Shown here one piece after another: positions 14,442 to 37,934 of a DNA stretch of 64,000 nucleotides (position 1 is its first letter; each line of letters opens with the position of its first letter). A program made the position numbers and the translations under genes. The DNA lies in assembly GCA_965237525.1 (NCBI GenBank), contig CBDEFO010000007.1:52796-116795 (forward strand), in the 5' to 3' direction. Below the pieces are notes generated by a model. That model was given only the letters and a program-made list of their open reading frames with translations. It made no database searches and was not told the DNA's origin. The DNA is from Candidatus Latescibacterota bacterium (lineage in GTDB: Bacteria; Latescibacterota; CBDEFO01).

Positions 14442-14469
14442 CTGTCTACTGTCTACTGTCTACTGTCTA
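14442..14469. repeat. (CTGTCTA)4 heptamer tandem repeat
   Basis: Four exact copies just before the lolC/E start; reverse complement of the AGTAGAC units after groEL and lysS. Confidence 0.9.
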
Positions 14470-14478
14470 CTTACTTAG

Positions 14479-18061: not shown

Positions 18062-18118
18062 TTAAAAAAGAAATACAATAAAATCGCAATCGATGTAATT
18101 TCTTCCGGGAGCGTCCAG

Positions 18119-20596
18119 ATGAATTACAGGGAAATCTTTTCAGATAGAGCAATAAAGGTAATGCAATACGCGCGGTCGGAGTCCGCTCGATTAGGGCATC
18201 ACTACGTCGGCACAGAACATATCCTTTTGGGCATGATCAAGGAGGGCAAAGGTAAGGGGGTTACTGCCCTTATCAATTTAGGGGTCGATCTGGAAAAGGC
18301 AAAGCAGGCCATAGAGGAATATGCACCTCCGTCTGGGGGACAGGCCGTAGTGGGTCAAGAGATACCGTTCACGCCGCGCGCCATAGCCAGTTACGAGGCG
18401 GCCTCCAATGAAGCCAAGGAGATGAAGGTCTCAAAAGCGGGTACGGAACATCTGCTCTTAGGACTCATAGGCGACAAAAGTAGTATAGGGTCTCAGATCC
18501 TCCAGAGCCACGGTGTGGACTACAAAACGGCTAAAGAGGAAGTCATCGCTGTAGTCTCCGGAAAATCCTCCGGCAGGAAAGAGAGGAAAAAGAGCAAGAC
18601 TCCGTTTCTGGACCACTTCGGCAGGGACCTGACTCAGCTTGCCAAAGAGGGAAAACTAGATCCCATAATCGGGAGAGAAAATGAGATCCAACGTCTGTCC
18701 CAGGTCCTAAGCAGAAGGAAGAAGAATAACCCCGCTCTGATAGGAGAGCCTGGAGTCGGCAAGACTGCTATCGTTGAGGGTCTGGCACAGAAGATAGTGT
18801 CCAAAATGGTTCCCCAGATCCTTGTAGATAAAAGGGTCGTAACCATGGATATGGGAAGTCTGGTTGCCGGAACCAAATACAGAGGGATGTTCGAGGAACG
18901 AATGAAGGCGATCATGAACGAGATCCAGCAGAGCGACGAAGTGATTATCTTCATAGATGAGCTCCATACCATAGTCGGAGCAGGCAGCGCTGAGGGCACA
19001 CTGGATGCCTCGAATATGTTCAAGCCTGCACTTTCCAGGGGCGAAATACAGTGCATAGGTGCTACGACGCTCGACGAATATAGAAAATATATAGAGAAGG
19101 ATGGAGCCTTAGAACGACGTTTCCAGACGATTATGGTCGATCCGCCCTCTGTGGAGGACACAGTCGAGATCATTAAAGGATTAAAGGAGTCCTACGAGTC
19201 TCATCACAAGGTCAAGTACAGCGACAAGGCAGTAAGCGCAGCGGCAGTTCTATCCGACAGATACATAAGCGGCCGCTACCTTCCCGATAAAGCGATAGAT
19301 GTCATAGACGAAGCCGGATCCCGAGCCCATTTAGCCAAAATGAATCCTCCTCAACATATAAGAGACCTGGAACTGAAGATCGAAGAGATAAGAAAAAAGA
19401 AGGACGACGTGGTGCAAGCACAGGACTATGAGCAGGCGGCAAACCTGAGAGACGAACAGATGACTCTGGAGGATAGACTCGAAAGAGAAAGGGAAGAATG
19501 GGAGGAAAGAATAAAAGATGAGATAACAACGGTCACAGAGGACGATATGGCCGATGTCATCTCACACATGACAGGGATACCGATCTTCCGTCTGGCCAAA
19601 TCTGAATCTGCGAAGCTCATAGGAATGGAGGAAGAGCTCAAAAAGGAAGTCGTGGGCCAGGATGAAGCTGTTACCGCTATATCTAAGGCTGTAAGGAGAA
19701 CAAGATCAGGGCTGAAAGACCCGAACAGACCGATAGGTTCATTTGTGTTCCTCGGGCCTACTGGATGCGGCAAGACACATCTTGCCAAAACCCTAGCCAA
19801 GTATCTCTTCGAGGACGAAGATACCCTGATAAGAGTCGATATGTCCGAGTTTATGGAGAAGTTTTCCGTCTCCAGGCTCGTCGGCGCCCCTCCCGGATAC
19901 GTGGGCTACGATGAGGGTGGACAGCTTACCGAAAAGGTGAGGCGCAAGCCCTACTCCGTCGTCCTTTTGGACGAGATAGAAAAGGCCCATCCCGATGTCT
20001 TCAACATCCTACTGCAGGTCCTTGACGAAGGACACCTGACCGACAACTTCGGAAGGAAAGTAGATTTCAAAAACACGATTTTGATCTTAACGTCCAACCT
20101 CGGCACCAGAGGGATAGGCAAAGGGACGACTATTGGATTCCAGAAGGCAGGATCCAAATCAGCCAGAGAGCAGTTGGAAGACACGGTCAAAGAGGAAGTC
20201 AAAAAGACCTTCAACCCTGAGTTTTTGAACCGACTGGATGAGACTATAATCTTTCAGTCGCTCGGAAAGAAAGAGATCCTCCAGATCATTGACATTATGA
20301 TGAAAGAGATCATCGAGAGGACATCGGAGAAAGAGATTTCAGTGGTCCTGACCCAGGGGGCTAAGAAGCTGTTAGCTAAGAAGGGATTTGATCCCACCTT
20401 CGGAGCGCGCCATTTAAAAAGAACGATCCAAAAGATGGTCGAAGATCCCCTGGCAGAGGAAATGCTTCTGGGAAAGTTCAGCCCAGGAAGCAGGGTCAAG
20501 ATCTCCAAGAAAGGGGACGAACTAGTCTTTTCTGAGGTTCAGAAGGATAACCTGGACGAGGAAGTAGAGGACAAAGAAACTGTGGAGAGCAACTGA
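18119..20596 (+). CDS. clpC: ATP-dependent Clp protease ATP-binding subunit ClpC
   Basis: Clp-N repeats, two Walker A motifs (GEPGVGKT, GPTGCGKT), UVR M-domain, IGF loop. Confidence 0.95.
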   Translation: MNYREIFSDRAIKVMQYARSESARLGHHYVGTEHILLGMIKEGKGKGVTALINLGVDLEKAKQAIEEYAPPSGGQAVVGQEIPFTPRAIASYEAASNEAKEMKVSKAGTEHLLLGLIGDKSSIGSQILQSHGVDYKTAKEEVIAVVSGKSSGRKERKKSKTPFLDHFGRDLTQLAKEGKLDPIIGRENEIQRLSQVLSRRKKNNPALIGEPGVGKTAIVEGLAQKIVSKMVPQILVDKRVVTMDMGSLVAGTKYRGMFEERMKAIMNEIQQSDEVIIFIDELHTIVGAGSAEGTLDASNMFKPALSRGEIQCIGATTLDEYRKYIEKDGALERRFQTIMVDPPSVEDTVEIIKGLKESYESHHKVKYSDKAVSAAAVLSDRYISGRYLPDKAIDVIDEAGSRAHLAKMNPPQHIRDLELKIEEIRKKKDDVVQAQDYEQAANLRDEQMTLEDRLEREREEWEERIKDEITTVTEDDMADVISHMTGIPIFRLAKSESAKLIGMEEELKKEVVGQDEAVTAISKAVRRTRSGLKDPNRPIGSFVFLGPTGCGKTHLAKTLAKYLFEDEDTLIRVDMSEFMEKFSVSRLVGAPPGYVGYDEGGQLTEKVRRKPYSVVLLDEIEKAHPDVFNILLQVLDEGHLTDNFGRKVDFKNTILILTSNLGTRGIGKGTTIGFQKAGSKSAREQLEDTVKEEVKKTFNPEFLNRLDETIIFQSLGKKEILQIIDIMMKEIIERTSEKEISVVLTQGAKKLLAKKGFDPTFGARHLKRTIQKMVEDPLAEEMLLGKFSPGSRVKISKKGDELVFSEVQKDNLDEEVEDKETVESN

Positions 20597-20618: not shown

Positions 20619-23600
20619 ATGAAGATCAAGAAGAAAATCCTGCTTTGGGGGCTCTCCGTTCTGTGCCTCGTTGTGATCTTCTTCGTTTCCTTTTTATACT
20701 ACGGGTGGGGCTTCATTAATCTGGAAGAAAAAGTCAACAGCTTTATAGTGGAAAGAGTCTCCCCTTTGGTGGGCGGAACGCTGTATGTGAAAAGTTACAG
20801 GCTGGGTCTAGGATCTATAGTCCTTTACGATGTAAAGGCCGAATTGTACAACTTCAAATCGAGCCTTCAAATCGAAAAAGTAGTGGTCAAGTACGATCTG
20901 ATCCACGCTATGCTGCACTCCTTCAATTTTGAGGAGGGCTTAAGGGAGATCGTTCTTAACCGCCCACAGTTGACTCTCCAGCTTGCAGCAGATGAATCCC
21001 AGGTGCAAAGTGAAGATTTATCGTCAGTAGGCAGCCCGGATTTAGGCTTGAAGGTCAAGATCGTTCAGGGAAGCTTGGCCCTTGTGGGCCCTTTAAACGC
21101 AGTCCGCTCCTCTCCTCTCAAGGAAATCAAAGGGACAGTAGATATTGATAGTAATGGCAGGGCCACTATAGACCTTGAAGGAATGACCCCGAATGGAGGA
21201 GGTGCAAAATTAGACGGTTGGATCGAGCTTATGGGAAATGGATATGATCTTCAGGCATCGGTCGATTCATCCGATATATCCGGCACGTGGGTTGAGGCTT
21301 TTACAGAGGATATTTACGATCAAGCTGGCCAAATAGGATTTCGGTGCAGGCTTTCCCGGAGTGCTGAGGCAGGGGGAAAGCCGTTTTTGTATGGGGAAGG
21401 CCAGATTAGCAACCTATCAGCCATGGTAAAACCGATACGACAGAGAATAGACTCCTTGAACGTCTCGTGGAAAGTTGAGGGTGATTCGCTCGTGATCAAG
21501 GAGGCTGAAGGTCTCTTGTGGAACACAAGACTTAATGCATCGGGAAACTTGAAGCTTTCGGGTGATCAAGAAACCGATATGGAATTTCGGTTCGCCGATG
21601 TTGATTTAGAAAAAATGGTCGCTCTTCTAGCCCCGCAAGAAGAAAAGATCATCTGCGGAAGAGGTACCAGTCTGATCAGAGTGGACGGGCCACTTAAAGA
21701 CCCCAGAGTGGTGGGAAAGTTCAAAGCCGAAAGCGCCTACTTAAAAAAAGATATCGAGATTTATGACCTGAATATCGATTTCAGAGTAAAGGAGCAGTCA
21801 ATAGTTATAGATGACATAAAGACATCCTTGGGGAAAAGTAGACTTTGGGGTTTTGGCTCTATAGCGTTGAAAGATGATGAGAAAGGACAGATTAGTATTG
21901 CTCTGAAGTCCGATGATTTCAACGCAGAAGACGGAATTAGCTTCTTCGGATGGGAGGATGTCAAGGGAAAAGGGAGTCTGAACTTTGAACTATCCGGCGA
22001 CATCAGTAACCTCAGGTGGTCCCTGCGGTATGTTCCCCAAGTACTGACTATAGGTGGGATAGACCTTCCCGCTCAGACGAACAATGTTGACTACAACGGA
22101 AAAGATATTCACTTTGAATCTTCAGGCAAGGCTTGGAAAATCGTTGGCGTCCTGTCCGACCCGTTTGGACAAACTCCGCGGCTGGACGCAGACCTTGAGA
22201 TAGACGAACTTTTGACCCGTGTCAAGGAGATAGGAGGGGAAAATGTAGAAGGAGAAATAAAGCTGAAGGGAGCACTTTCCTCTATCGAGGCACGTGGACA
22301 ACTCAATCTCTGGACAGGTGACAGGGACGACGGGAGGTTATACGTCCAAGGGAGGTTCTACGACCTTTTTAAAGACACAAGACGGATAGAAGTCAAAGTC
22401 GACGCAGCTGGACTGAGGGTTTACGAGGGGAAGATAGATTTAACTTCCCAGGTATCTGAAGAAATAGATAAGATTCAACTGGACATTGGGACCAAAGATA
22501 AGAAGGTCCATTTTGTGGGATCTGTAGATCGGCGCGAAGGGGAGAGCATAACCGGAGAACTTTCGATAGGAGACTTTCCCACCAGCGATCTTTTGGGCTT
22601 CCTAGGATTTGAAGATACACCTTTAGAGGGCCAGATCGATGGGAGGGCATTAATTTCAGGAAGAATTGATAGCCTTCAGGTTATGGGCGCTTTAGAGATA
22701 TCCGATGCACGCATCAACAACGCCGATTCTATTAAAGCTGTGGTCGACCTGGATTGGGACAATGACGTTTTGAATATTCATAATTATTTCCTCTTCCAGA
22801 ACGAAAAGATGATATTCAGTGGAAGAGGAAACTGGAGGAACGCAGGGAACTTTGACCTGAGGGCCAAGTCAGAAGAGATGGACCTTTCTACTCTGCTGGC
22901 ACTCTTAGGAGCCAGCAAAGTAGAGGCTTCGGGTGCGGTCAAATTGGATGCTAACTTTATAAGTAGAGAGGATACATCAGCCGCAAAGGTGGAGTTTTCT
23001 GGAGAAGGTGGCCACATCTTCGGCGTGCCCTTCGACAGGATGGCTGCTCTTTTGAGAGGAGATCTTGCGAGGCTTGAGATACATGATTTCAAAATAGAAA
23101 AGGACGAAAAATATAGAGTGTCAATCGCAGGCGAACTCCCCTTCATAAGAGCCAAAGAGGACCGAGAGAAGCTGTTGAACGTAAATGTGGAGGCGGCAGG
23201 CGATCTTTTGTCTTTTGCCTTCAGGTCAGCATTTATAGAAGAGGCCTCGGGAAATGCCAGCGCGTCCTTTAGAATCGGAGGCCAATGGAAGGAACCATAT
23301 ATAGAACAGGCGGAAATTAGCTTTTCCGGAGGTCAGTTGAAGCCTTCTACATTTGTAAGACAGGTGGATGACTTGAAGGGACGTCTCGTGCTCGAACCCG
23401 GCTCAAACTTCCTCATTATGCAAGGCATATCAGGCAGAGTCGGTTCCGATATGATATTCGTAAAGAACGTACAAGCTGCTCTTGCCAAAGGGCAAAATAT
23501 CCCTCATTTTGTGATAAAAAGCTTGGGGGATCTCAACCTGGGCGTTCTAATAATAGAGACCTCTAAAGACGGCATAGAGATTAACATCCCGCCTCTGATG

Positions 23601-24701
23601 GATCAAGGGAAGGGGAAGTTCTTCTTCCTCCCAAGGGCCGCAGGGGAGCACTTTTACGTCGGCGGCCCCAAAGAATCTCCTCTGGTCAGGGGAAGGCTGG
23701 AGGGGAAAAATGGCGAGTTTACGTATCCCTTCCTCGAACCTGAATCCGAAAGTCCCATTTTCGATTTCGTCGAAATCGTAAACTGGGACATGCTGGCAGT
23801 AGCCAAAAACGGCGTCGAATATTTCAGAGAAATTCCATCCCTCGTCCGCGGAGTCCAAGCAGGGCGAGCAAGGGCCCGTATACAGGAGGGAAGCTACCTG
23901 GATTTTCAAGGGATCGACCAAGACGGTTCGTTCTATGTGACAGGGAAGGTAAGTTCGGTCAAAGGAACCATCAGCCTTTTAGATACCGAGTTTAATCTCT
24001 CAGAAGAGACAGGGGCAGAAGTGGATACTAAATACGGTGAGTATGCACGGTTCTACGGCAAGGCTTCAACCACCGTCTATGACGACTCGACAGGAGTCCC
24101 TACCCAGATATATTTGGAACTCTACGCCCTGGACCAATACACCAGGACAGAACTGGATAAGGCTCATTGGGAAGATTTTCGCTTCAAGCTCACATCGTTA
24201 GACCCTGCTGATGACTCCCAGGAGAAGATATTGGCCCAATTAGGATACGTCAGCGGAAATTACGACAAAAAGGCGATAGACGCTATGGCGATGATGAGCG
24301 ACACCATCTTCAGGAGACACATAGCCCATCCAGTAGAAAGGGGCTTAAGGTCGTCGCTGGGAATAGATGTGTTAAGAATAAGACCCCTTTTGGCATCAAA
24401 TCTGTTCGGGAAAGAAGAAGGAATCTTTAAAGGAGCACAGAATGTGGGAACGTGGAGGTTCCTCCGAGGGAGCAGACTCACAGTGGGAGAATACCTGGGA
24501 GACCGCTGGTTCCTGTCCTACACGGGATTACTGGATACAGGCGCCGATAGCCTGCAAAGAGACGCTTTAGGCATCAAGCACAGCTTAGGTTTAGAATATC
24601 TGATAAAGGCCAGAACCAGATTAGAGCTTAAATATTACTACGACGATATTGTCCGGGAAAACGACAGACGGCTAAATATAAGGCACGAGTTCGATTTTTA
24701 G
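20619..24701 (+). CDS. TamB/AsmA-like translocation and assembly protein
   Basis: 1360 aa, N-terminal TM anchor, beta-rich repeats, aromatic C-terminus, directly upstream of bamA. Confidence 0.7.
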   Translation: MKIKKKILLWGLSVLCLVVIFFVSFLYYGWGFINLEEKVNSFIVERVSPLVGGTLYVKSYRLGLGSIVLYDVKAELYNFKSSLQIEKVVVKYDLIHAMLHSFNFEEGLREIVLNRPQLTLQLAADESQVQSEDLSSVGSPDLGLKVKIVQGSLALVGPLNAVRSSPLKEIKGTVDIDSNGRATIDLEGMTPNGGGAKLDGWIELMGNGYDLQASVDSSDISGTWVEAFTEDIYDQAGQIGFRCRLSRSAEAGGKPFLYGEGQISNLSAMVKPIRQRIDSLNVSWKVEGDSLVIKEAEGLLWNTRLNASGNLKLSGDQETDMEFRFADVDLEKMVALLAPQEEKIICGRGTSLIRVDGPLKDPRVVGKFKAESAYLKKDIEIYDLNIDFRVKEQSIVIDDIKTSLGKSRLWGFGSIALKDDEKGQISIALKSDDFNAEDGISFFGWEDVKGKGSLNFELSGDISNLRWSLRYVPQVLTIGGIDLPAQTNNVDYNGKDIHFESSGKAWKIVGVLSDPFGQTPRLDADLEIDELLTRVKEIGGENVEGEIKLKGALSSIEARGQLNLWTGDRDDGRLYVQGRFYDLFKDTRRIEVKVDAAGLRVYEGKIDLTSQVSEEIDKIQLDIGTKDKKVHFVGSVDRREGESITGELSIGDFPTSDLLGFLGFEDTPLEGQIDGRALISGRIDSLQVMGALEISDARINNADSIKAVVDLDWDNDVLNIHNYFLFQNEKMIFSGRGNWRNAGNFDLRAKSEEMDLSTLLALLGASKVEASGAVKLDANFISREDTSAAKVEFSGEGGHIFGVPFDRMAALLRGDLARLEIHDFKIEKDEKYRVSIAGELPFIRAKEDREKLLNVNVEAAGDLLSFAFRSAFIEEASGNASASFRIGGQWKEPYIEQAEISFSGGQLKPSTFVRQVDDLKGRLVLEPGSNFLIMQGISGRVGSDMIFVKNVQAALAKGQNIPHFVIKSLGDLNLGVLIIETSKDGIEINIPPLMDQGKGKFFFLPRAAGEHFYVGGPKESPLVRGRLEGKNGEFTYPFLEPESESPIFDFVEIVNWDMLAVAKNGVEYFREIPSLVRGVQAGRARARIQEGSYLDFQGIDQDGSFYVTGKVSSVKGTISLLDTEFNLSEETGAEVDTKYGEYARFYGKASTTVYDDSTGVPTQIYLELYALDQYTRTELDKAHWEDFRFKLTSLDPADDSQEKILAQLGYVSGNYDKKAIDAMAMMSDTIFRRHIAHPVERGLRSSLGIDVLRIRPLLASNLFGKEEGIFKGAQNVGTWRFLRGSRLTVGEYLGDRWFLSYTGLLDTGADSLQRDALGIKHSLGLEYLIKARTRLELKYYYDDIVRENDRRLNIRHEFDF

Positions 24702-24761
24702 GCATTTTCAGTTTTTCCCGCCTCCTATTTCAAAGACGGAGTATGCGAAAGCGAGGCTTGT

Positions 24762-27068
24762 ATGAAGGGCCGGATACTTATATTTACAATATCAATGATC
24801 TTGATCACAGAGATCTTTTTTCCTTCCCTATCTCTATCTCAGTTAGGGTCTACAAGAATCTCTAAGATCAGCGTTGAGGGCAACGTCCGCTCAAACGAAT
24901 CTTTAATTGTGAGCGCATCGGGACTACGGCATGGGCAGTATGTTACGCGTGAGGATATCCGGGACGCGATACGGGATCTCTACGCTTTGGGCCTCTTCCA
25001 CGATATAAAGGTCCTTAAAGAGGAAGATGAAAACGGAGAAACGGTGCTGACGTTAGAAGTAAAAGAATATCCAGCGCTCAAGGAGCTCAGGTTCGAGGGG
25101 AACGATAAGATAAAGGATAAGGACCTAGAAAAGACCGTAGGGTTTATAAAGGAACAGGTTATAAGCCCCAAGGATTTAAAGGACGCCGAAATAAAGATAA
25201 GATCAATGTATGAGGATAAGGGATACCTCCTGGCAGAAGTAGATCATAATCTATTCAAGTCGGGCGAACTCGGAGAGATTATACTCGGCTTCAATATCCG
25301 CGAAGGGGTCAAGGTGCAGGTCAAAAGGATAGGGATATTTGGGAATGAGAAAATTAACGATTCTGACATTAGCAAGCAGATGGAGATCAAAGAGGACAGA
25401 TGGTGGAGGGGAGGCGACTTCAAAAGGGATGTGTACAGAGAAGACCTCAGGAAGATAGAGATCTTTTACAGGAGCAATGGCTACAGGGACGCTGAGATAC
25501 TGCGTGACAGCCTCTACTATGATGGGACTAGGGAGGGCCTGTACATAGATATTTACGTCCAGGAGGGGACACTATACCGATTCGGAGAGGTCACGTGGGA
25601 GGGGAATACATTTATCAGCAACGATGAGATCTCAAAGCAGGTGGTTGCAAAAAGAGGACAGTCTTACGAGGAGTTTAAATACCTGATGACGCGCCAGAAC
25701 ATATCCTCAGCGTATCAGGAGACCGGCTATCTCAACATCAGAGTTATCCCCGAAATTGTAGATCTGGAAGGAAAGGTAAACATACACTTTAAGATCCTGG
25801 AAGGCAATCCTTCAAGGGTTAAAATCGTCAAGATTAAAGGGAATACCAAGACGAAAGAAAAGGTAATACGAAGAGAACTCTCCGTCAAGCCAGGACAGGT
25901 CTTTAGACGTTCAGAACTGGAGAGGAGCGTACGGGACATATATATCCTCGGATACTTCAAAAACGTTGAGCCCAAGCACGAAGTATTAGAAAACGGGGAC
26001 GTAAACATAGAGTTTGACGTGGAGGAAAGGCACACAGGGACGGCGTCCATGGGTGCGGGATTCAGCGAAAGAGATAGACTTGTGGGAACCATAGGTCTAT
26101 CGGTACCCAACTTTCTGGGCAACGGTCAAAAGCTCGACTTCAACTGGGATTTCGGAACCAGAAGAGAACTTCTAAGGATAGGATTTACAGAGCCGTGGCT
26201 CTTTGACACGCCTACCTCAGGATCGTTTAACATATTCAAGAGCAAAAGCCAGTTCTTCAGCAACGGTACAGATGAATTCGATCTGAAGCGGCAGGGTGTC
26301 TCGGTGTCGATGGGCAGGAAACTCGGATGGCCCGATAGCTTCTCAAGGGGCGTGATAAGATACAGGTTCGAGGAAGAAAGGTTCGGTAATTTCTCAGCGG
26401 AATACACAGGGACCTTTAAAGATAGAAAACCTACCAAAACGGCTACCTTGAGCGCAACTTATATCAGGGACAGCCGCGATCTTCCCCTCTTTCCCACAAA
26501 GGGCTCTATAGTCTCGTACACTCCGGAGTTTGGAGGCGAGTTCCTCGGTGGCGACGCCGATTACTACAAGCATTTTTTAGATGGCAATTTCTTCTTTGGC
26601 ACACTCTGGAAGTTCGTGCTAAACGTCAGAACAAGGGTCGGGTTCGTCAAGACATTTGCGGACGACATAGATAACATCCCGTTTACCGAGAAGTTTACAC
26701 CGGGAGGAATTGACATAGTAGATGGCATGATCAGGGGCTACTCCGACAGATCTGTGGGACCAAGAGAGGACGGATTTAGACAGGGAGGTAATTCGATGTT
26801 GATCTTCAACATAGAATATCGGTTCCCCGTAGTCGATCAGCAGATGTACGGGATATTCTTCGCCGACGCTGGAAACGCCTGGAAACATCCTTCTGATCTG
26901 GACATTGGAAGCCTCAAACGTTCCGCAGGCTTCGGCATAAGGTTCATGGCTCCCATAATAGGCTTGATCGGATTCGACTTTGCCTACGGATTCGACAGGG
27001 AAGAAGTGGACGGTGCGCTGCCCGAGTGGAAGACACACTTCCAGTTTGGTCCACAACTGCAGTATTAG
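24762..27068 (+). CDS. bamA: Outer membrane protein assembly factor BamA
   Basis: POTRA repeats (GNTKTKEKVIRREL), NFLGNGQ, IRGY motif, C-terminal HFQFG. Confidence 0.93.
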   Translation: MKGRILIFTISMILITEIFFPSLSLSQLGSTRISKISVEGNVRSNESLIVSASGLRHGQYVTREDIRDAIRDLYALGLFHDIKVLKEEDENGETVLTLEVKEYPALKELRFEGNDKIKDKDLEKTVGFIKEQVISPKDLKDAEIKIRSMYEDKGYLLAEVDHNLFKSGELGEIILGFNIREGVKVQVKRIGIFGNEKINDSDISKQMEIKEDRWWRGGDFKRDVYREDLRKIEIFYRSNGYRDAEILRDSLYYDGTREGLYIDIYVQEGTLYRFGEVTWEGNTFISNDEISKQVVAKRGQSYEEFKYLMTRQNISSAYQETGYLNIRVIPEIVDLEGKVNIHFKILEGNPSRVKIVKIKGNTKTKEKVIRRELSVKPGQVFRRSELERSVRDIYILGYFKNVEPKHEVLENGDVNIEFDVEERHTGTASMGAGFSERDRLVGTIGLSVPNFLGNGQKLDFNWDFGTRRELLRIGFTEPWLFDTPTSGSFNIFKSKSQFFSNGTDEFDLKRQGVSVSMGRKLGWPDSFSRGVIRYRFEEERFGNFSAEYTGTFKDRKPTKTATLSATYIRDSRDLPLFPTKGSIVSYTPEFGGEFLGGDADYYKHFLDGNFFFGTLWKFVLNVRTRVGFVKTFADDIDNIPFTEKFTPGGIDIVDGMIRGYSDRSVGPREDGFRQGGNSMLIFNIEYRFPVVDQQMYGIFFADAGNAWKHPSDLDIGSLKRSAGFGIRFMAPIIGLIGFDFAYGFDREEVDGALPEWKTHFQFGPQLQY

Positions 27069-27200
27069 AAAATAGTGCTGTCTGGGATGGATGGATGAAG
27101 TGGCGGCAACAAACCACGAAGTGATCTGACGACATAACACACCTTTTTCGCAAGACAATTCCTCAATGCTTTTGGGGACCCCCTCAAGGAGAGAATCGCT

Positions 27201-27770
27201 ATGCGTTCCAAAGTTCTTTTAAAAAGGTCTATCTTTACCACCGCTGTGGCGTCTACCGTTGTTCTGTTCTGGGCTGTTTTCTCCCATGCCGCTGATCTGA
27301 AGGTTGCCTACATCAACTCGGAGCGCATACTCTCAGACTATAAGGCCCTTGCTGAAGTTCAGCAAGAACTGGACAGATACAAGGATCAGTGGGAGAAAGA
27401 GGCCGAAAAGAAGCAGAGGGAGTTAGAACGTCTCAAGGAGGAATATGAGGTACAGCGGTTGCTTATGAGCGAGGAGAAGAGAAAAGAGCTTGAAAGGGAT
27501 GGGGAGGCTAAGGCCCAGGCCCTTCAGAAGTTCGTGGATGAGTTCCTCTCCCCAGGGGGGAAGTATGCTCAAAAGAACATAGAGCTCTCCAAGCCGATCT
27601 ACGATGAGATAAACTCCTTAATAAAGAATATAGGGGAAGAGGAGGACTACGACTTTATCTTCGACTCACCGGGCCTGCTCTTCGCAAAACCCCAATATGA
27701 CATAACCGACCGGATATTAGAGGAACTGGACAAAGAGATCCCCACGTCCAAGGAGTCCCAATCAGAATAG
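27201..27770 (+). CDS. skp: Skp/OmpH periplasmic chaperone
   Basis: Signal peptide, KVAYIN, coiled coil, YDFIFD...DITD. Confidence 0.88.
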   Translation: MRSKVLLKRSIFTTAVASTVVLFWAVFSHAADLKVAYINSERILSDYKALAEVQQELDRYKDQWEKEAEKKQRELERLKEEYEVQRLLMSEEKRKELERDGEAKAQALQKFVDEFLSPGGKYAQKNIELSKPIYDEINSLIKNIGEEEDYDFIFDSPGLLFAKPQYDITDRILEELDKEIPTSKESQSE

Positions 27771-27792
27771 GACTTAAAAATCGTCTTAGCCC

Positions 27793-28875
27793 ATGCAAAT
27801 GAGATTAGACCAAATCGTCAGCCTGGTCGGGGGAGAGATCCTGGGAGATGGCGGCACACTAATATCGGGAGTCGCGGGCATAGATGACGCCGAACAAGGC
27901 GATATTACCTTCCTTTCCAATCCCCAATATCGCCGTTATCTCAAATCCACAAAGGCCTCTGCCTTGATCCTCCCGTCCACATCTTCTTCCCCGATTGAAT
28001 CTATCGGGGATAGCCCCCATAAAGATGAAGATTCCATTTCTATCCCCGTTATCCTTTCTGAAAACCCCTATTACTGCTTCGCCCAGGTTATGCGACTCTT
28101 CCACACACAGGAGGATGAATATCCCAAGGAGATACACCTCACTGCTCAAGTGGCCAAGACCGCCCAGATCGGCGCTGGTATATATATAGGTCCTCACGTC
28201 TGTGTGGAAGAGGGAGCAAAGATCGAAGATGGAGTTAGAATCTGTGCAAATTCCATCATAGGAAAAAACTGCAAAATAGGCCAGGGGACTCTGATATATC
28301 CAAACGTGACGATCTACAAGGAAATACAGATCGGAAAGGACGTGATAATACACTCCGGAGCTGTTATAGGGAGCGACGGTTTCGGGTTTGCCCCGGATAA
28401 TGGCAAATATCACAAGGTCCCGCAGGTAGGTACTGTGATCATCGAAGATGACGCTGAGATAGGAGCTAATACCACGATAGATCGTGCAACAATGGGCGTT
28501 ACACGGATAGGAAAAGGAACCAAGATCGACAACCTGGTTCAGATAGCCCACAATGTGGAGATAGCTGCGGACACCGTTATTGCCGCCCAGGCAGGGGTTT
28601 CTGGGAGTACAAAGATCGGGAGAAAGTGCCAGATTGGTGGCCAAGTTGGCTTCGTAGGTCATATTGAATTGGGAGACGAATCGATAGTAGGTGCGCAATC
28701 GGGAATAGCCAAATCGTTCCCCGAAAAGTCGTTCATAACAGGAAGTCCCGCAAGATCAATAGAAATAGTCAGAAAGACAGAGGCCTATCAGAGCAAGATC
28801 CCCGACCTTTTAAAGAGAGTCAAGCAGTTGGAAAAACAGATGGAAGAACTCAAAGAGGAGTTGAGGGACGGATAA
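27793..28875 (+). CDS. lpxD: UDP-3-O-acylglucosamine N-acyltransferase
   Basis: [27 protein letters not shown], hexapeptide repeats. Confidence 0.95.
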
Positions 28876-28876
28876 G

Positions 28877-30286
28877 ATGCTCAAGAATCAGCGCACTATA
28901 GCAAAAGAGGTATCGTGCTCTGGCACGGGTCTGCACACCGGCTCGGAAGTCAAGGCTACGTTTAAACCGTCAGGAATCAATACAGGTGTGACGTTTGTGC
29001 GCACAGATCTTCCTATGAATCCCGAGATTCCAGCGGATATAGACCACGTAGTAGATACATCAAGGGGGACAACCATAGGAATTGACAACGCCAAAGTTCA
29101 CACAGTAGAGCACCTCCTGGCCGCTCTGGCAGGATTGGGAATAGACAACGTCACAGTAGAGATAAGTTCCAGCGAGCCCCCGGTCGGCGACGGCAGCGCG
29201 ATGATCTTTGTTGAGTCCCTGCAGAAGGCAGGATTTGTGGAGCAGGACTCTCCTAAAGACTACATCATCATAGAGGAGATGATCAGATACTCCGAGCCCG
29301 ATGGCGGTCCCGAATTGGTGGTTTTACCCTCAGACGACTTCAAGGTCACCTTTATGAGCGCTCCTGACACGCCGGCTGTAGAAGCCCAATATACAGGTAT
29401 GTTCTCACTGGAGGACGAGTTCATAGTGGACTACGCACCGGCGCGCACCTTTTGTCTGTTGAGTGAACTTAAGACCCTAAGAGAGCAAAACCTCATCAGG
29501 GGAGGTAGCCTCTCTAACGCCCTTGTCATCGCGGATGTCACTAGTAGTGAGGAGGAACTCGACGAACTCAAGGATCTTTTTGGAATTACCGAGCAAGTAA
29601 CGGTGGGCCAGAACGGTCTCATCAACGGAGTGGAACTTCGCTTCCCCAACGAATTCTGTCGCCACAAAGTCCTCGACCTTACGGGAGACCTCTTTCTTTT
29701 GGGTGCTCCTATCCGGGGGCACGTCATGGCGGTCAGCTCAGGGCACAGGTCGAACATAGAATTTGCTACAATGATCAGAAAAATCTATGAGAAAAGAAAG
29801 ATAGCCAAAGAGTACGACCACGCCAAGAGCGACAAATTCCTCTTCGACATAAGAGCCATCCGAAAGATTATGCCTCATCGCTATCCCTTCCTCATGATCG
29901 ACAGAATAATATATATGCTCCCAGGGGAAAAGGTGGTGGGTATAAAGAACGTCACGATCAACGAACAGTTCTTCACAGGACACTTCCCGACCGATCCTGT
30001 TATGCCAGCTGTCCTTCAGATAGAGGCTATGGCTCAAGTGGGGGGCATATTATTCCTGAGCACAGTGGACGATCCCGAAAAGAAACTGGTCTATTTCTTG
30101 GGAGTCGATAAGGCTAAGTTCAGAAAGCCTGTAGTTCCGGGAGATCAAATTCGCTTTGAGCTAGACATGATCAGGCTTCGGCGCACAACCTGCAAGATGC
30201 AGGGCAAAGCCTGTGTGGACGGAGATTTAGTAGCTGAAGCCGAGCTTACGGCAATGCTCGTGGATAAAGAAAATCCTCCTCACTGA
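28877..30286 (+). CDS. lpxC: Bifunctional LpxC deacetylase / FabZ dehydratase
   Basis: GTGLHTG, TVEHL, HKVLD (LpxC); PHRYPFL, GHFP..PVMP..LQIEAMAQ (FabZ). Confidence 0.95.
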   Translation: MLKNQRTIAKEVSCSGTGLHTGSEVKATFKPSGINTGVTFVRTDLPMNPEIPADIDHVVDTSRGTTIGIDNAKVHTVEHLLAALAGLGIDNVTVEISSSEPPVGDGSAMIFVESLQKAGFVEQDSPKDYIIIEEMIRYSEPDGGPELVVLPSDDFKVTFMSAPDTPAVEAQYTGMFSLEDEFIVDYAPARTFCLLSELKTLREQNLIRGGSLSNALVIADVTSSEEELDELKDLFGITEQVTVGQNGLINGVELRFPNEFCRHKVLDLTGDLFLLGAPIRGHVMAVSSGHRSNIEFATMIRKIYEKRKIAKEYDHAKSDKFLFDIRAIRKIMPHRYPFLMIDRIIYMLPGEKVVGIKNVTINEQFFTGHFPTDPVMPAVLQIEAMAQVGGILFLSTVDDPEKKLVYFLGVDKAKFRKPVVPGDQIRFELDMIRLRRTTCKMQGKACVDGDLVAEAELTAMLVDKENPPH

Positions 30287-30374
30287 ACCTCCCTATTGCC
30301 CTGATTCATCCTACCGCTTATCGTAAAGGCGGGGTAACCCCGTCCTCCACTTGATTCATCATCAGAGGCGAGAA

Positions 30375-31166
30375 TTGGAAATACACAAGTTTGCCCAATT
30401 AAGCCCCCAAGCCCAGTTGGACCAGGATGTCTCTATAGGTCCCTTCTCCCTGATCGAAGCGGGAGTAACCATAGGATCAGGGACTAATATAGGCTCGAAT
30501 GTTCTGATAGCCAAAGGCTCCATAATAGGCCGGGATTGTTCCATCCATCACGGCGCTGTAGTAGGTTCTGTACCCCAGGATTTGAAATTTCACGGCGAAG
30601 AGACGACGCTGGAAATGGGAGACAGGACGGTTATAAGAGAATACGCCACACTAAACCGCGGGACGTCGCACCGGATGAAGACCAGAATTGGGAGTGATTG
30701 CCTCCTAATGGCGTACGTCCATGTGGCTCACGACTGCATAATCAAAGACAACGTCGTCATTTCTAACTGCACGCAGATGGCAGGTCACGTGACTGTGGAA
30801 GACTATGTCAGGCTGTCGGGATGCGTGCTGATTCAACAATTCAGCAGGATAGGACAACATAGCTTCGTATCCGGGGGGTGCCGCATAACTAAGGATGTGC
30901 CACCGTTCATAAAAGCCTCCGGAGATCCGCCAAGTCCCGTCGGACTCAACGTCGGCAAGGGACAGACCGGTCCTGTGGGATTGGAAATGCACGGTATATC
31001 GAAGGAGGCTGTAGAGATTTTGAAGAAAGCATACAAGATCATCTTCAGGTCTGATATGAACACGACGCAGGCTATAGAGACAGTGAAAGCAGAGATCGAA
31101 CAGACAGAAGAGGTGAAGGCTCTTATAGAGTTTATAGAAAGCAGCGAAAGAGGAATAATAAAATAG
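30375..31166 (+). CDS. lpxA: UDP-N-acetylglucosamine O-acyltransferase
   Basis: PQDLKF, HVAHDC, AGHV, KDVPP, ERGII; probable TTG start at 30375. Confidence 0.93.
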   Translation: MEIHKFAQLSPQAQLDQDVSIGPFSLIEAGVTIGSGTNIGSNVLIAKGSIIGRDCSIHHGAVVGSVPQDLKFHGEETTLEMGDRTVIREYATLNRGTSHRMKTRIGSDCLLMAYVHVAHDCIIKDNVVISNCTQMAGHVTVEDYVRLSGCVLIQQFSRIGQHSFVSGGCRITKDVPPFIKASGDPPSPVGLNVGKGQTGPVGLEMHGISKEAVEILKKAYKIIFRSDMNTTQAIETVKAEIEQTEEVKALIEFIESSERGIIK

Positions 31167-32049: not shown

Positions 32050-32115
32050 ACCTCCAGAAGATAGTAGACAGTTGTCAGGGCCACCTCCTCCCTTCCCTGT
32101 TTGCTGTCTACTGAT

Positions 32116-33222
32116 TTATCGCCTGGCTCTTACCCCCCCTCCTTTCTGAGCGCGGGCGATTTCTTTTTCGATCTCTGTCTGTGTCACCATCGTCGTGTCC
32201 CCAGGGGTTAGTTGCACCAGAGCGCCGTGTGCCGCGCCCCACTCGACCGCCTCTTTCAGACCCTTTCCCCCAAGCAGAGCAGCAGCAGTCCCGGAGACGA
32301 AGGAATCGCCTCCGCCCGTTCGGTCTTTGATCTGGACGCCATCCCGCTGTGTTGCTTGATACAACTTCCGTCCCGATACGGAATACAAAATGGCGCCCCA
32401 GTTAATCGCATCTGCAGAGATGGCCCCACGAAGCGTGGTTCCGATTAACTTGAGATTGGGAAAATCCTCGGCCACCCTTACCACCATCTTTTCGTAGGCT
32501 TCTATCTTCAGGCTGGTGTAGTCCTGGCCCACCTCCTCTATCTCGTAGCCCAACGCCGCCTGGAAATCCTCCTCATTTCCGACGAGAAAATCTACGTACT
32601 GCACAAGTTCCCTATTGATACTTTGTGCCTTCTTCTGATCGGGCTGGAGACTCGATCTGTAGTTCAGATCAAAAGATACAAATGTGCCGGCCTCCCTTGC
32701 CGCCATTACAGCCTCCTTTGCCACCTCGGGGGCCGTATCGGATATTAGGGTATATATCCCGCCTGTATGGAACCACCGGACGCCCCTGTGGGAGAAGAGT
32801 CCACTCCAATCTACGTCTCCCCCTTTCAACTGGCGGGCTGAGGTGTGCGCCCTGTAGTACTCGGTCACCGACGGCAGCAGTCCCTTACCGCTCCAGGTGA
32901 AGTTTATGCCGTTGCACACCATTCCGATGCCGTCGAAATTCAACCAGACGATGTGGCTTGTATCTACGCCCGCTTCCCTCAGCTGAGCTTCAATATTTCG
33001 CCCTACGCCGTCGTCCACCAGAGCGGTGACCACAGATGTTCTCATGCCGAAAGAGTAGCTCAATCCTTCAGCGACGTTCAGCTCACCGCCCCCGTGCCAT
33101 GCCTTGAAAGTTCTGGACTTTCGTGTTGGAACATCCCCCGGATCCAATCTCAACATGACTTCACCGAGCGAGACCGCATCGTAGTCGCACTGTTCATCAG
33201 ATCTGATCGTCAATTCTGCCAT
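32116..33222 (-). CDS. kdgK: PfkB-family sugar kinase, 2-keto-3-deoxygluconate kinase type
   Basis: SLGEVMLRLDPG, GGGELNVA, FDLNYR, GNEEDF, DRTGGGDSF. Confidence 0.85.
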   Translation of the reverse strand: MAELTIRSDEQCDYDAVSLGEVMLRLDPGDVPTRKSRTFKAWHGGGELNVAEGLSYSFGMRTSVVTALVDDGVGRNIEAQLREAGVDTSHIVWLNFDGIGMVCNGINFTWSGKGLLPSVTEYYRAHTSARQLKGGDVDWSGLFSHRGVRWFHTGGIYTLISDTAPEVAKEAVMAAREAGTFVSFDLNYRSSLQPDQKKAQSINRELVQYVDFLVGNEEDFQAALGYEIEEVGQDYTSLKIEAYEKMVVRVAEDFPNLKLIGTTLRGAISADAINWGAILYSVSGRKLYQATQRDGVQIKDRTGGGDSFVSGTAAALLGGKGLKEAVEWGAAHGALVQLTPGDTTMVTQTEIEKEIARAQKGGGVRARR

Positions 33223-33473
33223 TTTTCATCCCTCCAAATTTCAAAGAAAAGACACTCTTGGCTTCAAGCTGCTCTAGCTTGCAAATATACGAATTTAGTT
33301 GAACAGAGTGCAAGGGGAAAATCCGTTTCAGACCAAAATGCAATCTAATTTAGGTTGGCTTCGGAATCTCTGCGTATCATAGAGGCATCTCCTCCCCTCA
33401 CTGTTAGCTGCCTGCTGGGTGAACACACGGGTCCCCTCAACTCCCTGCTCCGGAGTGGACAGGACCCGAATCT

Positions 33474-33623
33474 GACAACAATGTCCGACAAAAATGTCCG
33501 ATGTAAGTACTGATATTCGATAGGGACAAGCATAGTGATAGTCAAAGTCCTGAATATCTGTTAGCAACTACAACGTTTATGGCCGTCTCCTCAAACGTTT
33601 TCGTCTCTGGCACGTCTTTTGCA
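33474..33623 (+). promoter_or_regulatory. Sigma54 promoter with tandem enhancer-like sites
   Basis: TGGCACGTCTTTTGCA at 33608-33623 (consensus -24/-12); 13-bp direct repeat GACAAMAATGTCC at 33474-33486 and 33487-33499. Confidence 0.8.
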
Positions 33624-33651
33624 CTACTTAGGGAATGAAACACAGCTAAAG

Positions 33652-33725
33652 ATTCTCGGCAGACTGGCAAGGGCAAGTGCTCTTACCCCCCTCAGCACAG
33701 ATGCCCTCTTAGGTCTGCCGAGAAT
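33652..33725 (+). ncRNA. Putative structured RNA / 5' leader hairpin with C-rich loop
   Basis: 13-bp perfect stem ATTCTCGGCAGAC/GTCTGCCGAGAAT, inner stems AGGGCA/TGCCCT and GTGCT/AGCAC, loop CTTACCCCCCTC. Confidence 0.55.
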
Positions 33726-33768
33726 AACGGTGATGTCCCTAAAAGGGCGGAGAATTTAGGAGAGAAGA

Positions 33769-34425
33769 ATGCCAGTTATCCAGATTCGGAATTTGGACAC
33801 TTCAGAAATGAAGGACGAGGAACTTATGGCAGGGTTGTCAGACGGAGATATGTCCTGCTTTACAGGGATTGTCGAAAGATACAGGGATAGATTGATAAAC
33901 TTCCTTTTCCGGTTCGTAGGGGATCGCGAGACAGCCGAGGATATAGTCCAAGAGACGTTTCTGAGGGTCTTCAAAAAGAGAAGTTCGAACGCCGACATAA
34001 TGAACTTTTCAACATGGATATTTACGATTGCGAGCAACTTGGCCAAGACAGAACTCAGACGCAGAAAAAGGTGGAAATCTATATCTATAGATGCAGGCGA
34101 TCATGAAACACAAGTTCGGATAGAGGTTGCCGATGACTCACAAAGGCCTGACAACCTTGCTGAGTCGAGAATACTGGACGATATTGTGCACGACGCCATA
34201 CGTTCACTACCTCCTAAATATCGTCAGGCCATCCTGATGAGGGACGTCCAGGGATTATCTTACGAGGAGATTTCAAGGATAACTGAATGCCCGGTAGGGA
34301 CTATCAAATCGAGAGCAAACAGAAGCAGACTCAGGCTTCAGCGTAAACTCAGGAAGTTCAAGGATGAGATCCCTCCCTTGACTGATAGGGTCTATGCTCT
34401 GGTCCCCGAAAAGGTGATGAGGTGA
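33769..34425 (+). CDS. ECF sigma factor (sigma-70 family)
   Basis: AEDIVQETFLRV, FSTWIFTIASN, LSYEEIS...CPVGTIKSR. Confidence 0.92.
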   Translation: MPVIQIRNLDTSEMKDEELMAGLSDGDMSCFTGIVERYRDRLINFLFRFVGDRETAEDIVQETFLRVFKKRSSNADIMNFSTWIFTIASNLAKTELRRRKRWKSISIDAGDHETQVRIEVADDSQRPDNLAESRILDDIVHDAIRSLPPKYRQAILMRDVQGLSYEEISRITECPVGTIKSRANRSRLRLQRKLRKFKDEIPPLTDRVYALVPEKVMR

Positions 34426-34447
34426 GCCCTCAAAAAGGGTGAGGATA

Positions 34448-35014
34448 ATGAACAAATTTCGAAGAAAGACTGTGCCTTTATTGATCCTGCTATCTGTTGC
34501 ATTTACTCCGAAAGCTGGATCGGCGTCACAGCAAGATTCCAGATCGATTGTCCTGGATCGGAAGGGCAACAGGTTTGAGGTATCAAATCTTCTTTTAGGG
34601 GGACGTAACGATCTGGTCTTTACAGCGGGAAAGCAGAGATACAGGATTAAGTTTAATCAGATAAGAAAAGTAGAGCTTCAGGGGCATAGCGCAGATGAGA
34701 AGAAATCGATAGTGGTAACACTCAGGGATGGCAAAGTACTGAGTGGAGCCATATTTGCAGATACGAATACGCCCAACACGAGCGGCTCTATCAGATTTAG
34801 AGTGAGTAAGACGCTTTCAGGTGAGACAAAGTTGGGAAAGTTTTCCCTGTCCCTCAAGGACGTCAGGCAGATAGTCTTTCGCCACGATGAAAGTATAAGA
34901 TATTGCCCGGTGGATCAAAAGAGGTTCGTCGACTCGGAATTCAACTTTTGTCCATATCACGGCGATAGGCTTGTTACAGGGAAGGATCTCGCTAGGGTAA
35001 TCGTAGTGGAATGA
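34448..35014 (+). CDS. Secreted hypothetical protein with C-terminal zinc-ribbon-like motif
   Basis: Signal peptide; repeated I-x4-I/V-R-x-V/I strands; CPVD...FCPYHG. Confidence 0.6.
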   Translation: MNKFRRKTVPLLILLSVAFTPKAGSASQQDSRSIVLDRKGNRFEVSNLLLGGRNDLVFTAGKQRYRIKFNQIRKVELQGHSADEKKSIVVTLRDGKVLSGAIFADTNTPNTSGSIRFRVSKTLSGETKLGKFSLSLKDVRQIVFRHDESIRYCPVDQKRFVDSEFNFCPYHGDRLVTGKDLARVIVVE

Positions 35015-35040
35015 TAAACTGCGCGTGATATATACAGCAC

Positions 35041-35079
35041 AAGAGCGATCATCAAATACGATGGTCGCTCTTTTTCTTT
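35041..35079 (+). terminator. Rho-independent terminator
   Basis: AAGAGCGATCATC-N6-GATGGTCGCTCTT followed by TTTCTTT. Confidence 0.8.
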
Positions 35080-35410
35080 GTACAACACGAGAAGCTTTAC
35101 AAAACCTTCTAATCTCATTCGGAAAGACAAAGTTTAAGTTTTGCAGAGAGATAACGATTTGTCCCAACGTATGTATTCGTAGAGGCGAGCTAACCCCGGC
35201 ATACATTCGGTTTGGGTTGCTTATTTCAGGGCCCACAGGGGCGAACCCATGCGGAGAAACTCCTGCAAAAATGCTACCTTTCCGAATCACAAAAAACCTT
35301 GTAAAGACTTCTGGACTTGGAGCGTGGTTGTTCGTATATTTTATACTTGGATTCAGTCTTTGAAAAGGCCCTAGCTCAAGTTATCTGACTGTTATTGATG
35401 GAGGAGAGCA

Positions 35411-35929
35411 ATGACACTCAAGATGTTAGGGAAAAGGATAGTGGAAGTGGCCTATTTAGAAGGGGATTTTGTGCTGAGTTCGGGTAAAAGGAGCAATTAT
35501 TACCTGGACAAGTATCTCTTTCTGGGGCAGCCGGAGATATTGAAAGCCATAGCGACACATATAGCCCAAATGATCCCCGACAAAGTGGACAGAATAGCCG
35601 GCCCGGAACTCGGAGCGGTGCCTTTAGCGGCGGCTCTTTCTATCCAGACAGGCATACCATTTGTCATAGTCCGAAAGGAGGCAAAGGGATACGGCACAAG
35701 CGCACAGGTGGAAGGAGGCATAAAGATAGGAGAATCACTAATCTTGATAGAGGACGTGGCAACTACGGGAAGTCAAGCTATCGCTGCAGCCGAACATCTG
35801 ACACGGATAGGCAATAAAATCGTAAAAATAATATGTGTTATAGACAGGGAAGAAGGAGCAAAACAGAACGCTCAAGAGGCGGGATACACACTGGAATCCC
35901 TCTTTACAAAGACTGGCTTGGGGATATAG
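35411..35929 (+). CDS. pyrE: Orotate phosphoribosyltransferase
   Basis: GDFVLSSGK..YYLD, VRKEAKGYG, IEDVATTG. Confidence 0.93.
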   Translation: MTLKMLGKRIVEVAYLEGDFVLSSGKRSNYYLDKYLFLGQPEILKAIATHIAQMIPDKVDRIAGPELGAVPLAAALSIQTGIPFVIVRKEAKGYGTSAQVEGGIKIGESLILIEDVATTGSQAIAAAEHLTRIGNKIVKIICVIDREEGAKQNAQEAGYTLESLFTKTGLGI

Positions 35930-37214: not shown

Positions 37215-37934
37215 TCAGTTCATCTTATCTGCTTTCCAGACCAGTATCCTCCCACAACTTTCACACGCAATCACTCTGTCGTTTCTTCTGATTTCGCTGG
37301 CCCTCTGAGGTGGAAGTTGTCTAAAGCATCCTCCACAAGCTCCTTTCATTACTGGAACCACAGCAATACTTTTACCACGCCGAACCCTCTTGTAAACTGA
37401 CAAAGCCCTCCTATCTACACCGTCCTGAACGATCTTTCCTTTGCCCTCCAAAGCGTCTATATCCCCGTCCAAAGACCGTAACTTTTCGGACAATTCGGAG
37501 ATCTTGCTCGATTTTTCGGCATCCATTTCTGCGAGGGCTCCAGACTCAACCTCCATTTTAGTCTTCAGCTCTTCAATTCCCTCCATCGCTGCCAAGATCT
37601 CAGATTCGCTAAGGTCGATCTTCTTCTGATAGGTCTGGATCTCCCCCTGCAGCGCGTCATATTCTCTGTTTGTCTTTATATTACGCTGGTAGAGTCGACC
37701 CTGGTGCTCCTTCAACTCCCCGTTGGCGACCTCCAACTCCCGCTCAAAGTGGCGCCTGTTCTTTTCAAGCTCCTGGGAATCTTCTTCCTTTTGGCACAAG
37801 GCCTCCTTCGCTGCCTTTAACTCCTGCCCCAAACGTTCTATTTCCTTGGGATACTCCTCTCTTGACTTCTTAAGATCGTCGATAGCGCTGTCTATCTCTT
37901 GAAGATCTAAAAGCTTCGTAAGATTTTCTTTCAT
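37215..37934 (-). CDS. C4-type zinc ribbon coiled-coil protein (DUF164 family)
   Basis: LLDLQEID, KTNREY, CGGC...CESCGRIL. Confidence 0.88.
   Translation of the reverse strand: MKENLTKLLDLQEIDSAIDDLKKSREEYPKEIERLGQELKAAKEALCQKEEDSQELEKNRRHFERELEVANGELKEHQGRLYQRNIKTNREYDALQGEIQTYQKKIDLSESEILAAMEGIEELKTKMEVESGALAEMDAEKSSKISELSEKLRSLDGDIDALEGKGKIVQDGVDRRALSVYKRVRRGKSIAVVPVMKGACGGCFRQLPPQRASEIRRNDRVIACESCGRILVWKADKMN

Follow-up and report, generated by a model that had tools for sequence, protein, structure and literature searches.

What controls the synthesis of a sigma factor of the extracytoplasmic function (ECF) type when no anti-sigma gene accompanies it? The question is raised by a locus in a stretch of 64,000 nt (the window) of the Latescibacterota contig CBDEFO010000007.1; all coordinates given here are window positions. 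At this locus an intergenic region of 546 bp (33223-33768) has a pfkB-family kinase gene on one side and an ECF sigma gene on the other, and the sigma gene is followed by the gene of a predicted exported protein. An earlier note on the same DNA had listed tandem repeats, a sigma-54 promoter, a leader hairpin, the two genes and a terminator. All the sequence features it named are present, and the regulatory unit is real and well formed (Table 1). We consider it reasonably probable that the unit is a lineage-specific two-gene operon of Latescibacterota with an enhancer-dependent sigma-54 promoter. The comparisons below mostly concern the orthologous locus L001 on the chromosome OZ252149.1, a metagenome-assembled genome (MAG) of Latescibacterota, where the exported protein is 98% and the sigma factor 97% identical; dyads, promoter and hairpin are all retained there, and no other genome with the unit was found.

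The consensus sigma-54 promoter of the earlier note was confirmed as a perfect -24/-12 element. The 64 kb contain no second perfect TGGCAC-N5-TTGCW on either strand (0.06 expected), and the GG and GC doublets of the element are exactly 10 nt apart, as in sigma-54 promoters. In an ad hoc weighted scan for -24/-12 elements it takes the top score of 23/23, followed by runners-up of 21 and 20. The element is oriented toward the sigma gene and lies 145 bp 5' of its ATG. Based on the usual spacing, the transcript would start at about 33633-33635, and the match itself points to the use of sigma-54 at this promoter. Elsewhere in the window, a -24/-12-like sequence (CGGCATGTGTTTTGCG, 3844-3859, 20/23 in the same scan) is located about 80 nt 5' of the groES ATG (3939), where no CIRCE-like inverted repeat was seen by eye upstream of groES; it may be a second sigma-54 promoter.

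The tandem 13-bp repeats with GACA-N4-TGTC, also claimed in the note, can be read directly from the sequence. Their dyad cores are GACAACAATGTC (33474-33485) and GACAAAAATGTC (33487-33498), centred at about -155 and -142 relative to the predicted start, and a position about 140-155 bp upstream is typical for enhancer sites. The repeats exceed chance: the window has five copies of GACANNNNTGTC, where 0.76 are expected. Of the longer unit GACAANAATGTCCG it contains three perfect copies (33474, 33487 and 6176) and, at up to two mismatches, seven matches against 1.30 expected. Neither the five nor the seven was reached in any of 100 shuffles. The one dyad position that differs in L001 is the spacer base C33479A, by which the two units of L001 become identical. 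The dyads are tandem and non-random and lie in the range of about 80-200 bp upstream that is usual for activator sites, with a motif not assigned to a known site of a bacterial enhancer-binding protein (bEBP); an activator may bind there, and TCnGACA-N4-TGTCnGA offers a concrete motif for locating it. A candidate site for integration host factor between the dyads and the promoter (WATCARNNNNTTR, one mismatch) was set aside as uninformative, such matches numbering 87 in the window against 91.7 expected. The inverted repeat directly 5' of the dyads differs from L001 by one pair lost and one gained, adjacent to each other, among its three changed positions, and no T-run follows it on either strand. 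The dyad unit has its third exact copy (GACAAGAATGTCCG, 6164-6192) between the groEL terminator and an insertion sequence (IS) element. This copy is preceded by TGGACAGGAC, as at 33455, a string that also lies inside the inverted repeat; no -24/-12 element was found near it, and the same DNA-binding protein may recognise both places.

Concerning the leader, the earlier note had described a 74-nt hairpin of three stems; the stable three-segment hairpin is there, with a length of 73 nt. Its helices have 13-14, 6 and 5 bp and carry a 12-nt C-rich loop. The minimum free energy (MFE) is -39.3 kcal/mol (z = -5.50), an equally good fold was found in 0 of 200 shuffles, and a search of the 64 kb with an 11-nt seed gave just two local inverted repeats, of which the hairpin is the longer. 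In L001 it has an MFE of -33.3 kcal/mol and z = -5.7. The Shine-Dalgarno (SD) sequence of the sigma gene is left unpaired in the MFE fold of the whole leader, and no terminator or U-tract comes directly after the hairpin. If the hairpin has a function, its shape suggests that it is most likely a cis-acting mRNA element, either for processing or stability through a double-stranded-RNA-specific RNase or as a protein-binding site, and not a free small RNA (sRNA). The Rfam check that the note proposed was run and gave no family at the gathering threshold on the leader in Rfam 15. The best sub-threshold match was a miRNA model (E = 0.34), and elsewhere in the window Rfam matched only RNase P and two tRNAs.

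The segment between promoter and hairpin differs strongly from L001 with its total length kept, and by eye the change resembles a TAC duplication with a compensating deletion. Two further leader candidates were rejected. The outer stem UUAGGGA/UCCCUAA of a 151-nt fold has its 5' half replaced in L001, and for a leader peptide (ATG AAA CAC AGC TAA at 33636) no SD lies at a usable distance and L001 lacks the ATG. As to the conservation that the note asked about, hairpin and -24/-12 element are both kept in L001, the one near-identical genome that could be compared. At 98% identity the two hairpin sequences are too similar for covariation to show.

The sigma factor contains the Pfam domains Sigma70_r2, Sigma70_r4_2 and Sigma70_ECF and no region 3 domain, which places it among the ECF (group IV) sigma factors. 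Among the 25 NCBIfam matches listed, TIGR02937 (ECF superfamily) is the only model that passes its cut-off (108.4 bits vs 42.9), and all equivalog models stay below theirs; of the models under their cut-offs, PRK12513, SigW and RpoE do best. The closest PDB chains are RpoE, SigW and a 'sigma-H' that we take to be AlgU-type. By similarity to these models and chains, the protein would be RpoE/SigW-like. At E <= 1e-10, 2629 of 3000 candidates are relatives. One of them (P0002) is 97% identical, and all others are at most 59% identical and mostly 201-211 aa long; those at 51-59% include P0003-P0006, whose N-termini are similar. Several relatives are labelled Latescibacteria or Gemmatimonadota, and the sister genome probably also holds a more conventional sigma paralogue (P0113, 56% identical). 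The C-terminal extension noticed earlier is a modest one, as the tail after LQxKL has about 26 residues vs 9-18 in seven homologues (about 8-17 more) and is free of Cys and of an RCE/D motif. Regulatory C-terminal extensions of the ECF41/42 type are described as usually exceeding 50 aa beyond region 4 (PMC7826278), a length that this tail does not reach.

The stop codon of the sigma gene is 22 nt from the next ATG, with an SD-like GGGTGAGGA in between, and the terminator scan found no plus-strand terminator-like site between the sigma gene and 35041. The strong terminator of the note was found after the second gene (35041-35072, or 35041-35082 as given in Table 1); its 13-bp stem has six GC pairs and is followed by TTTTCTTT / TTTTCTTTGT, the structure of an intrinsic terminator.

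The second protein begins with KFRRK and a hydrophobic stretch followed by GSA. Our reading by eye agrees with the note that this is a signal peptide, and from it the protein is predicted to be exported. With about seven residues ahead of the hydrophobic stretch and without a match in Pfam or NCBIfam, it lacks the cytoplasmic anti-sigma domain of a canonical ECF/anti-sigma pair, and the operon has no classical anti-sigma factor, as the note had held. A beta-rich domain of about 120 aa is followed by a C-terminal CP-x-D...CP-x-H knuckle pair, which the note had called a zinc ribbon. Zinc ribbons have two knuckles with four metal ligands, classically CxxC...CxxC. In the window protein the pair is CPVD...CPYH. 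Of the four ligand positions, only C153 and C168 are the same in all of 16 relatives; the other two vary (C/D and D/H), one sequence being offset by a residue (CPVGD), and the label of the note has to be qualified to this extent. The window protein has no zinc-ribbon Pfam match at E <= 1. At the same threshold, 15 proteins (12 members of its family and three neighbours of homologues) gave sub-threshold matches only, the best being DUF6982 (E = 0.0034) and zinc-ribbon models (E = 0.0072).

Looking at the family as a whole, a HMMER scan of 1.84 billion proteins gave 43 cluster representatives at E <= 0.001, the window protein included. A word-indexed protein search recovered only the query, a PDB profile search gave nothing below E = 0.17, and the ESM Atlas had no entry for the protein or a homologue. 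Behind an N-terminal hydrophobic signal-like segment, members of the family have one copy of the domain (about 190 aa, in most cases with the C-terminal knuckle pair), two copies (about 300 aa) or four. The protein is a member of an undescribed family, and an uncharacterised family of predicted exported proteins is defined.

We also scanned for loci of the exported protein with an alignment of six sequences and obtained ten (L001-L010). With the window sigma as query, phmmer gave matches only in the window and L001 among all open reading frames (ORFs) of at least 60 aa of the window and the ten loci. No sigma homologue is present in the fetched flanks of the other nine loci, where the upstream flank was 1.3 kb in L003 and 1.5 kb in L004. 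L002, on the same chromosome as L001, carries a 41% paralogue of the exported protein, and L003-L005 belong to other Latescibacterota. In L002-L005 the homologue gene is located 3' of a lipoprotein gene (219-237 aa; the 287-aa ORF of L005 probably starts further in) and the genes on its own 3' side encode an unknown protein (about 300 aa) and a TPR protein (about 1070 aa), joined in L003 and L004 by a peptidyl-prolyl isomerase (PPIase). In L006-L010, from MAGs labelled Bacillota, Vulcanimicrobiota and Synergistia, the gene lies between a Memo/AMMECR1 gene and that of a Bmp-type binding protein. Since nine other loci are without the sigma gene, the pairing of sigma factor and exported protein is lineage-specific, and the pair appears to have been assembled from two paralogues, both of them duplicates.

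Several observations weigh against the sigma-54 operon, and they have to be considered together with the alternatives. A Pfam scan of the 46 larger ORFs of the window gave no rpoN or bEBP gene; its sole Sigma54_activat match is weak and lies inside a ClpB/ClpC-type AAA+ protein. The window has no second clear sigma-54 promoter (the next candidates are the two at 21 and 20 of 23), and the only other genome with the unit is too close to be informative. At codon positions 1-2 the sigma gene has 8 of its 15 substitutions relative to L001, and pfkB has 8 of 25; the counts are small and hint at relaxed constraint on the sigma gene. It is therefore conceivable, although we think it improbable, that the -24/-12 match is fortuitous or unused, that a housekeeping sigma factor or the ECF sigma itself transcribes the operon, and that the dyads bind an ordinary repressor or activator. 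A perfect match occurs once in 6 of 100 window shuffles, and the half-sites of the dyads are 8 bp apart centre to centre, closer than those of typical bEBP sites. An AAC-N16-CGTC string, the classical shape of an ECF promoter, overlaps the -24/-12 element (33594-33616). We rejected it as an autoregulatory promoter: it is not enriched in the window (9 vs 5.84 expected), and its AAC is lost in L001 (A33595G, G33597C), where the -24/-12 element is unchanged over its 16 positions. A scan of 33000-35500 for sigma-70-type promoters gave three sites against 2.6 expected, at 34148-34175 within the sigma gene and at 35312-35366, 3' of the terminator, and none in 33223-33768, 5' of the sigma gene. The position and orientation of the element and the repeats upstream of it jointly fit sigma-54. 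A gene for a CT398/HP0958-family protein (37215-37934, minus strand; coiled-coil hairpin and C4 zinc ribbon by Pfam) is also present. HP0958 is reported to protect RpoN from turnover in Helicobacter pylori (PMC3372290), but the family is described from Mycobacterium too (PMC5947703), and for this reason the gene is no evidence for sigma-54. Among the papers listed by a literature search on Latescibacteria and sigma-54, none mentioned 'Latescibacter'.

The hairpin raises alternatives of its own. The more plausible of them, though still unlikely, sees in it a selfish or neutral palindromic insertion (REP- or MITE-like, or from duplication and inversion) within an ordinary sigma-54 or sigma-70 unit. 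Fourfold-degenerate sites of three flanking genes differ from L001 at 20 of 347 positions (5.8%), a rate at which about four changes would be expected in the hairpin. The two observed are not significantly fewer, so it diverges at a roughly neutral rate, and while one change lies in an internal loop the other (G33703A) breaks a C-G pair and weakens the middle helix, with the fall in stability given above. Its minus strand folds equally well (-40.9 kcal/mol), and folding is therefore silent on the strand and even on RNA being the relevant form. The recent look of the operon's assembly, and the short dispersed repeats and IS elements elsewhere in the window (below), agree with an insertion as well. 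Against it, the hairpin has stayed intact in L001, with 10 of the 28 nt immediately 5' of it changed, and no target-site duplication was seen by eye at its flanks. It is also single-copy in 165,670 bases (the window and the ten loci) by BLAST and by a covariance model, which found the copies of the window and L001 and one further match at E = 6.8; the multicopy repeat that the note had named as a refutation was not seen in these bases. A release of the hairpin as a trans-acting sRNA is far less probable. In that case the sigma-54 transcript would have a dual function, with a C-loop riboregulator, excised for instance by an RNase specific for double strands, acting in trans on G-rich sites such as SD regions and possibly the 3' end of the sugar-kinase mRNA, and the remaining transcript encoding the ECF sigma without an anti-sigma factor; a single enhancer-dependent promoter would in this way set off a response at two levels, transcriptional and post-transcriptional. 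The exposed C-rich loop on a very stable stem and the precedent of the processed multi-stem sRNA Pxr, with its apparent sigma-54 promoter (PMC5568312), are in line with such a release. A 13-nt string spanning the loop (GCTCTTACCCCCC) also recurs on the same strand at 32126-32138 (at 32126-32142 as GCTCTTACCCCCC(C)TC); the leader is therefore complementary to the final codons of the pfkB mRNA, which is read from the minus strand. However, this match has a BLAST E of 0.18, and two synonymous GGG-to-GGA changes break it in L001 with the loop unchanged; we treat it as chance. Complements of the loop are not enriched in the window (9 vs 6.0 expected), both ribosome-binding sites of the operon complement it poorly by eye, and trans targets of the loop were rejected accordingly. 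With these counts, and with neither a terminator after the hairpin nor an Rfam match, the anti-SD or processed sRNA of the note finds no support.

Returning to the sigma-54 operon, we propose the following order of events. The perfect -24/-12 element would hold a sigma-54 RNA polymerase, and a bEBP bound at the two adjacent dyads, about 140-155 bp upstream, would remodel it. The transcript, starting at about 33634, would comprise a leader of about 135 nt, the RpoE/SigW-like sigma and the exported protein, and would stop at the terminator (35041-35082). The leader hairpin would leave the ribosome-binding site open and act in cis on the mRNA. Because the operon is without an anti-sigma factor, the sigma would be controlled by its synthesis, and its activity set mainly by the amount made, as in an HrpL-type sigma-54-to-ECF cascade. 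Such a cascade had been suggested in the earlier note, and the anatomy of the operon, with its dyads and perfect -24/-12 element, fits that part of the suggestion; the anti-SD or sRNA leader is the part that found no support.

Table 1. Features of the locus in window coordinates, with the positions that differ from the orthologous locus L001.
Feature	Position	Strand	Description	Differences from L001
pfkB-family kinase gene	32116-33222	-	Pfam; transcribed divergently from the sigma gene	
Inverted repeat, 17-nt arms	33428-33468		directly 5' of the dyads; membership in the unit uncertain	3/41
Candidate upstream activator site, two overlapping 18-bp dyads	33471-33501	+	TCnGACA-N4-TGTCnGA; putative activator binding	1/31 (spacer base)
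Dyad-to-promoter spacer			106 bp	3/106
Sigma-54-type -24/-12 promoter	33608-33623	+	TGGCACGTCTTTTGCA; GG 33609-33610, GC 33621-33622	0/16
Start-proximal leader segment	33624-33651	+	28 nt between promoter and hairpin; hypervariable between window and L001	10/28
Leader hairpin	33652-33724	+	73 nt; apical loop CUUACCCCCCUC at 33682-33693	2/73
44 nt before the ATG				3/44 and one indel
ECF sigma gene	33769-34425	+	218 aa; AGGAG 6 nt 5' of the ATG	
Gene of the predicted exported protein (family X')	34448-35014	+	188 aa; alternative GTG start 34439	
Intrinsic terminator	35041-35082	+	13-bp stem, then T-run	

Other features of the window are the following. The 9-mer AGTAGACRG is present in 14 copies against 0.74 expected, a number reached in 0 of 100 shuffles. 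The copies are found at 1071, 5898-6066 (five), 12584, 14442-14471 (four, in a 7-nt tandem array), 32063, 32104 and 59060, and those inspected (5898-6066, 12584, 14442-14471, 32063 and 32104) are intergenic and beside gene ends. Around the copy at 32104, the stretch 32090-32115 cannot be aligned with L001, and for that reason these repeats may be dynamic. Two IS-type transposase genes (6673-8073 and 8257-9590; DUF772 with a DDE domain, and DDE_Tnp_1_4 in two halves) are each split into two ORFs and are probably frameshifted or subject to programmed frameshifts. The release-factor ORF at 9935-10903 (PCRF and RF-1 domains) has a Pfam match that begins at profile position 12, which would fit a prfB with its N-terminus in another frame, reached through a programmed frameshift. 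Genes for McsA-like (UVR), McsB-like (ATP:guanido phosphotransferase) and ClpB/ClpC-type proteins occupy 16446-20596. They are followed at 20619-31166 by ORFs matching TamB, Omp85/POTRA (BamA-like), OmpH (Skp-like) and LpxD; judged by eye, an apparent LpxC-FabZ fusion (469-aa ORF, 28877-30286) and an apparent LpxA (30351-31166) are also there. This cluster of envelope-biogenesis type ends less than 3 kb upstream of the operon.

An envelope-related response of the operon is a reasonable guess, because relatives of the exported protein sit with lipoprotein, PPIase and TPR genes and the operon is near the TamB/Omp85/OmpH/LpxD cluster. The regulatory logic is of a known kind, and the operon is plausibly a new, lineage-specific version of it with a hairpin of putative role. 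If the proposed operon is right, the sigma-54-to-ECF cascade, known from proteobacteria, extends to an uncultured phylum of the FCB group, and the circuit would be a recent assembly of an RpoE/SigW-like sigma and an envelope protein, each of them a duplicate.

The earlier note did not recognise a described module here, but HrpL with HrpR/HrpS and the rpoEP2 promoter of E. coli are precedents. In Pseudomonas syringae the ECF sigma gene hrpL (ECF32) is described as having no cognate anti-sigma factor, with transcription from a sigma-54 promoter under the enhancer-binding proteins HrpR/HrpS setting the activity in a sigma cascade (PMC8999054), and the window operon would resemble it in these respects. 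Unlike HrpL, the window sigma is RpoE/SigW-like by similarity, its operon has no type III secretion context, it would be co-transcribed with an exported protein behind a 73-nt leader hairpin, and it belongs to Latescibacterota and not to a proteobacterium. The rpoE gene of E. coli keeps the anti-sigma factor RseA and several other promoters, and differs in this from the window operon, which has no anti-sigma gene and only one recognisable promoter. Both are RpoE-type ECF genes with a sigma-54-type promoter, and the use of RpoN with the bEBP QseF at rpoEP2 is tied in the cited account to envelope signals (PMC6358824), as the window operon is near genes of envelope-biogenesis type. Concerning the sigma tail, ECF29 and ECF238 are described as groups without an anti-sigma factor whose tails of about 20-30 aa are proposed to modulate activity (PMC7826278); the tail of the window sigma is of similar length and differs from theirs by the absence of Cys and of the RCE/D motif. 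Concerning the leader, the Pxr of Myxococcus xanthus is described as a multi-stem sRNA with an apparent sigma-54 promoter and a probable longer precursor from which it is processed (PMC5568312). It has a gene of its own, whereas the hairpin of the window lies in the 5' untranslated region of a protein-coding operon.

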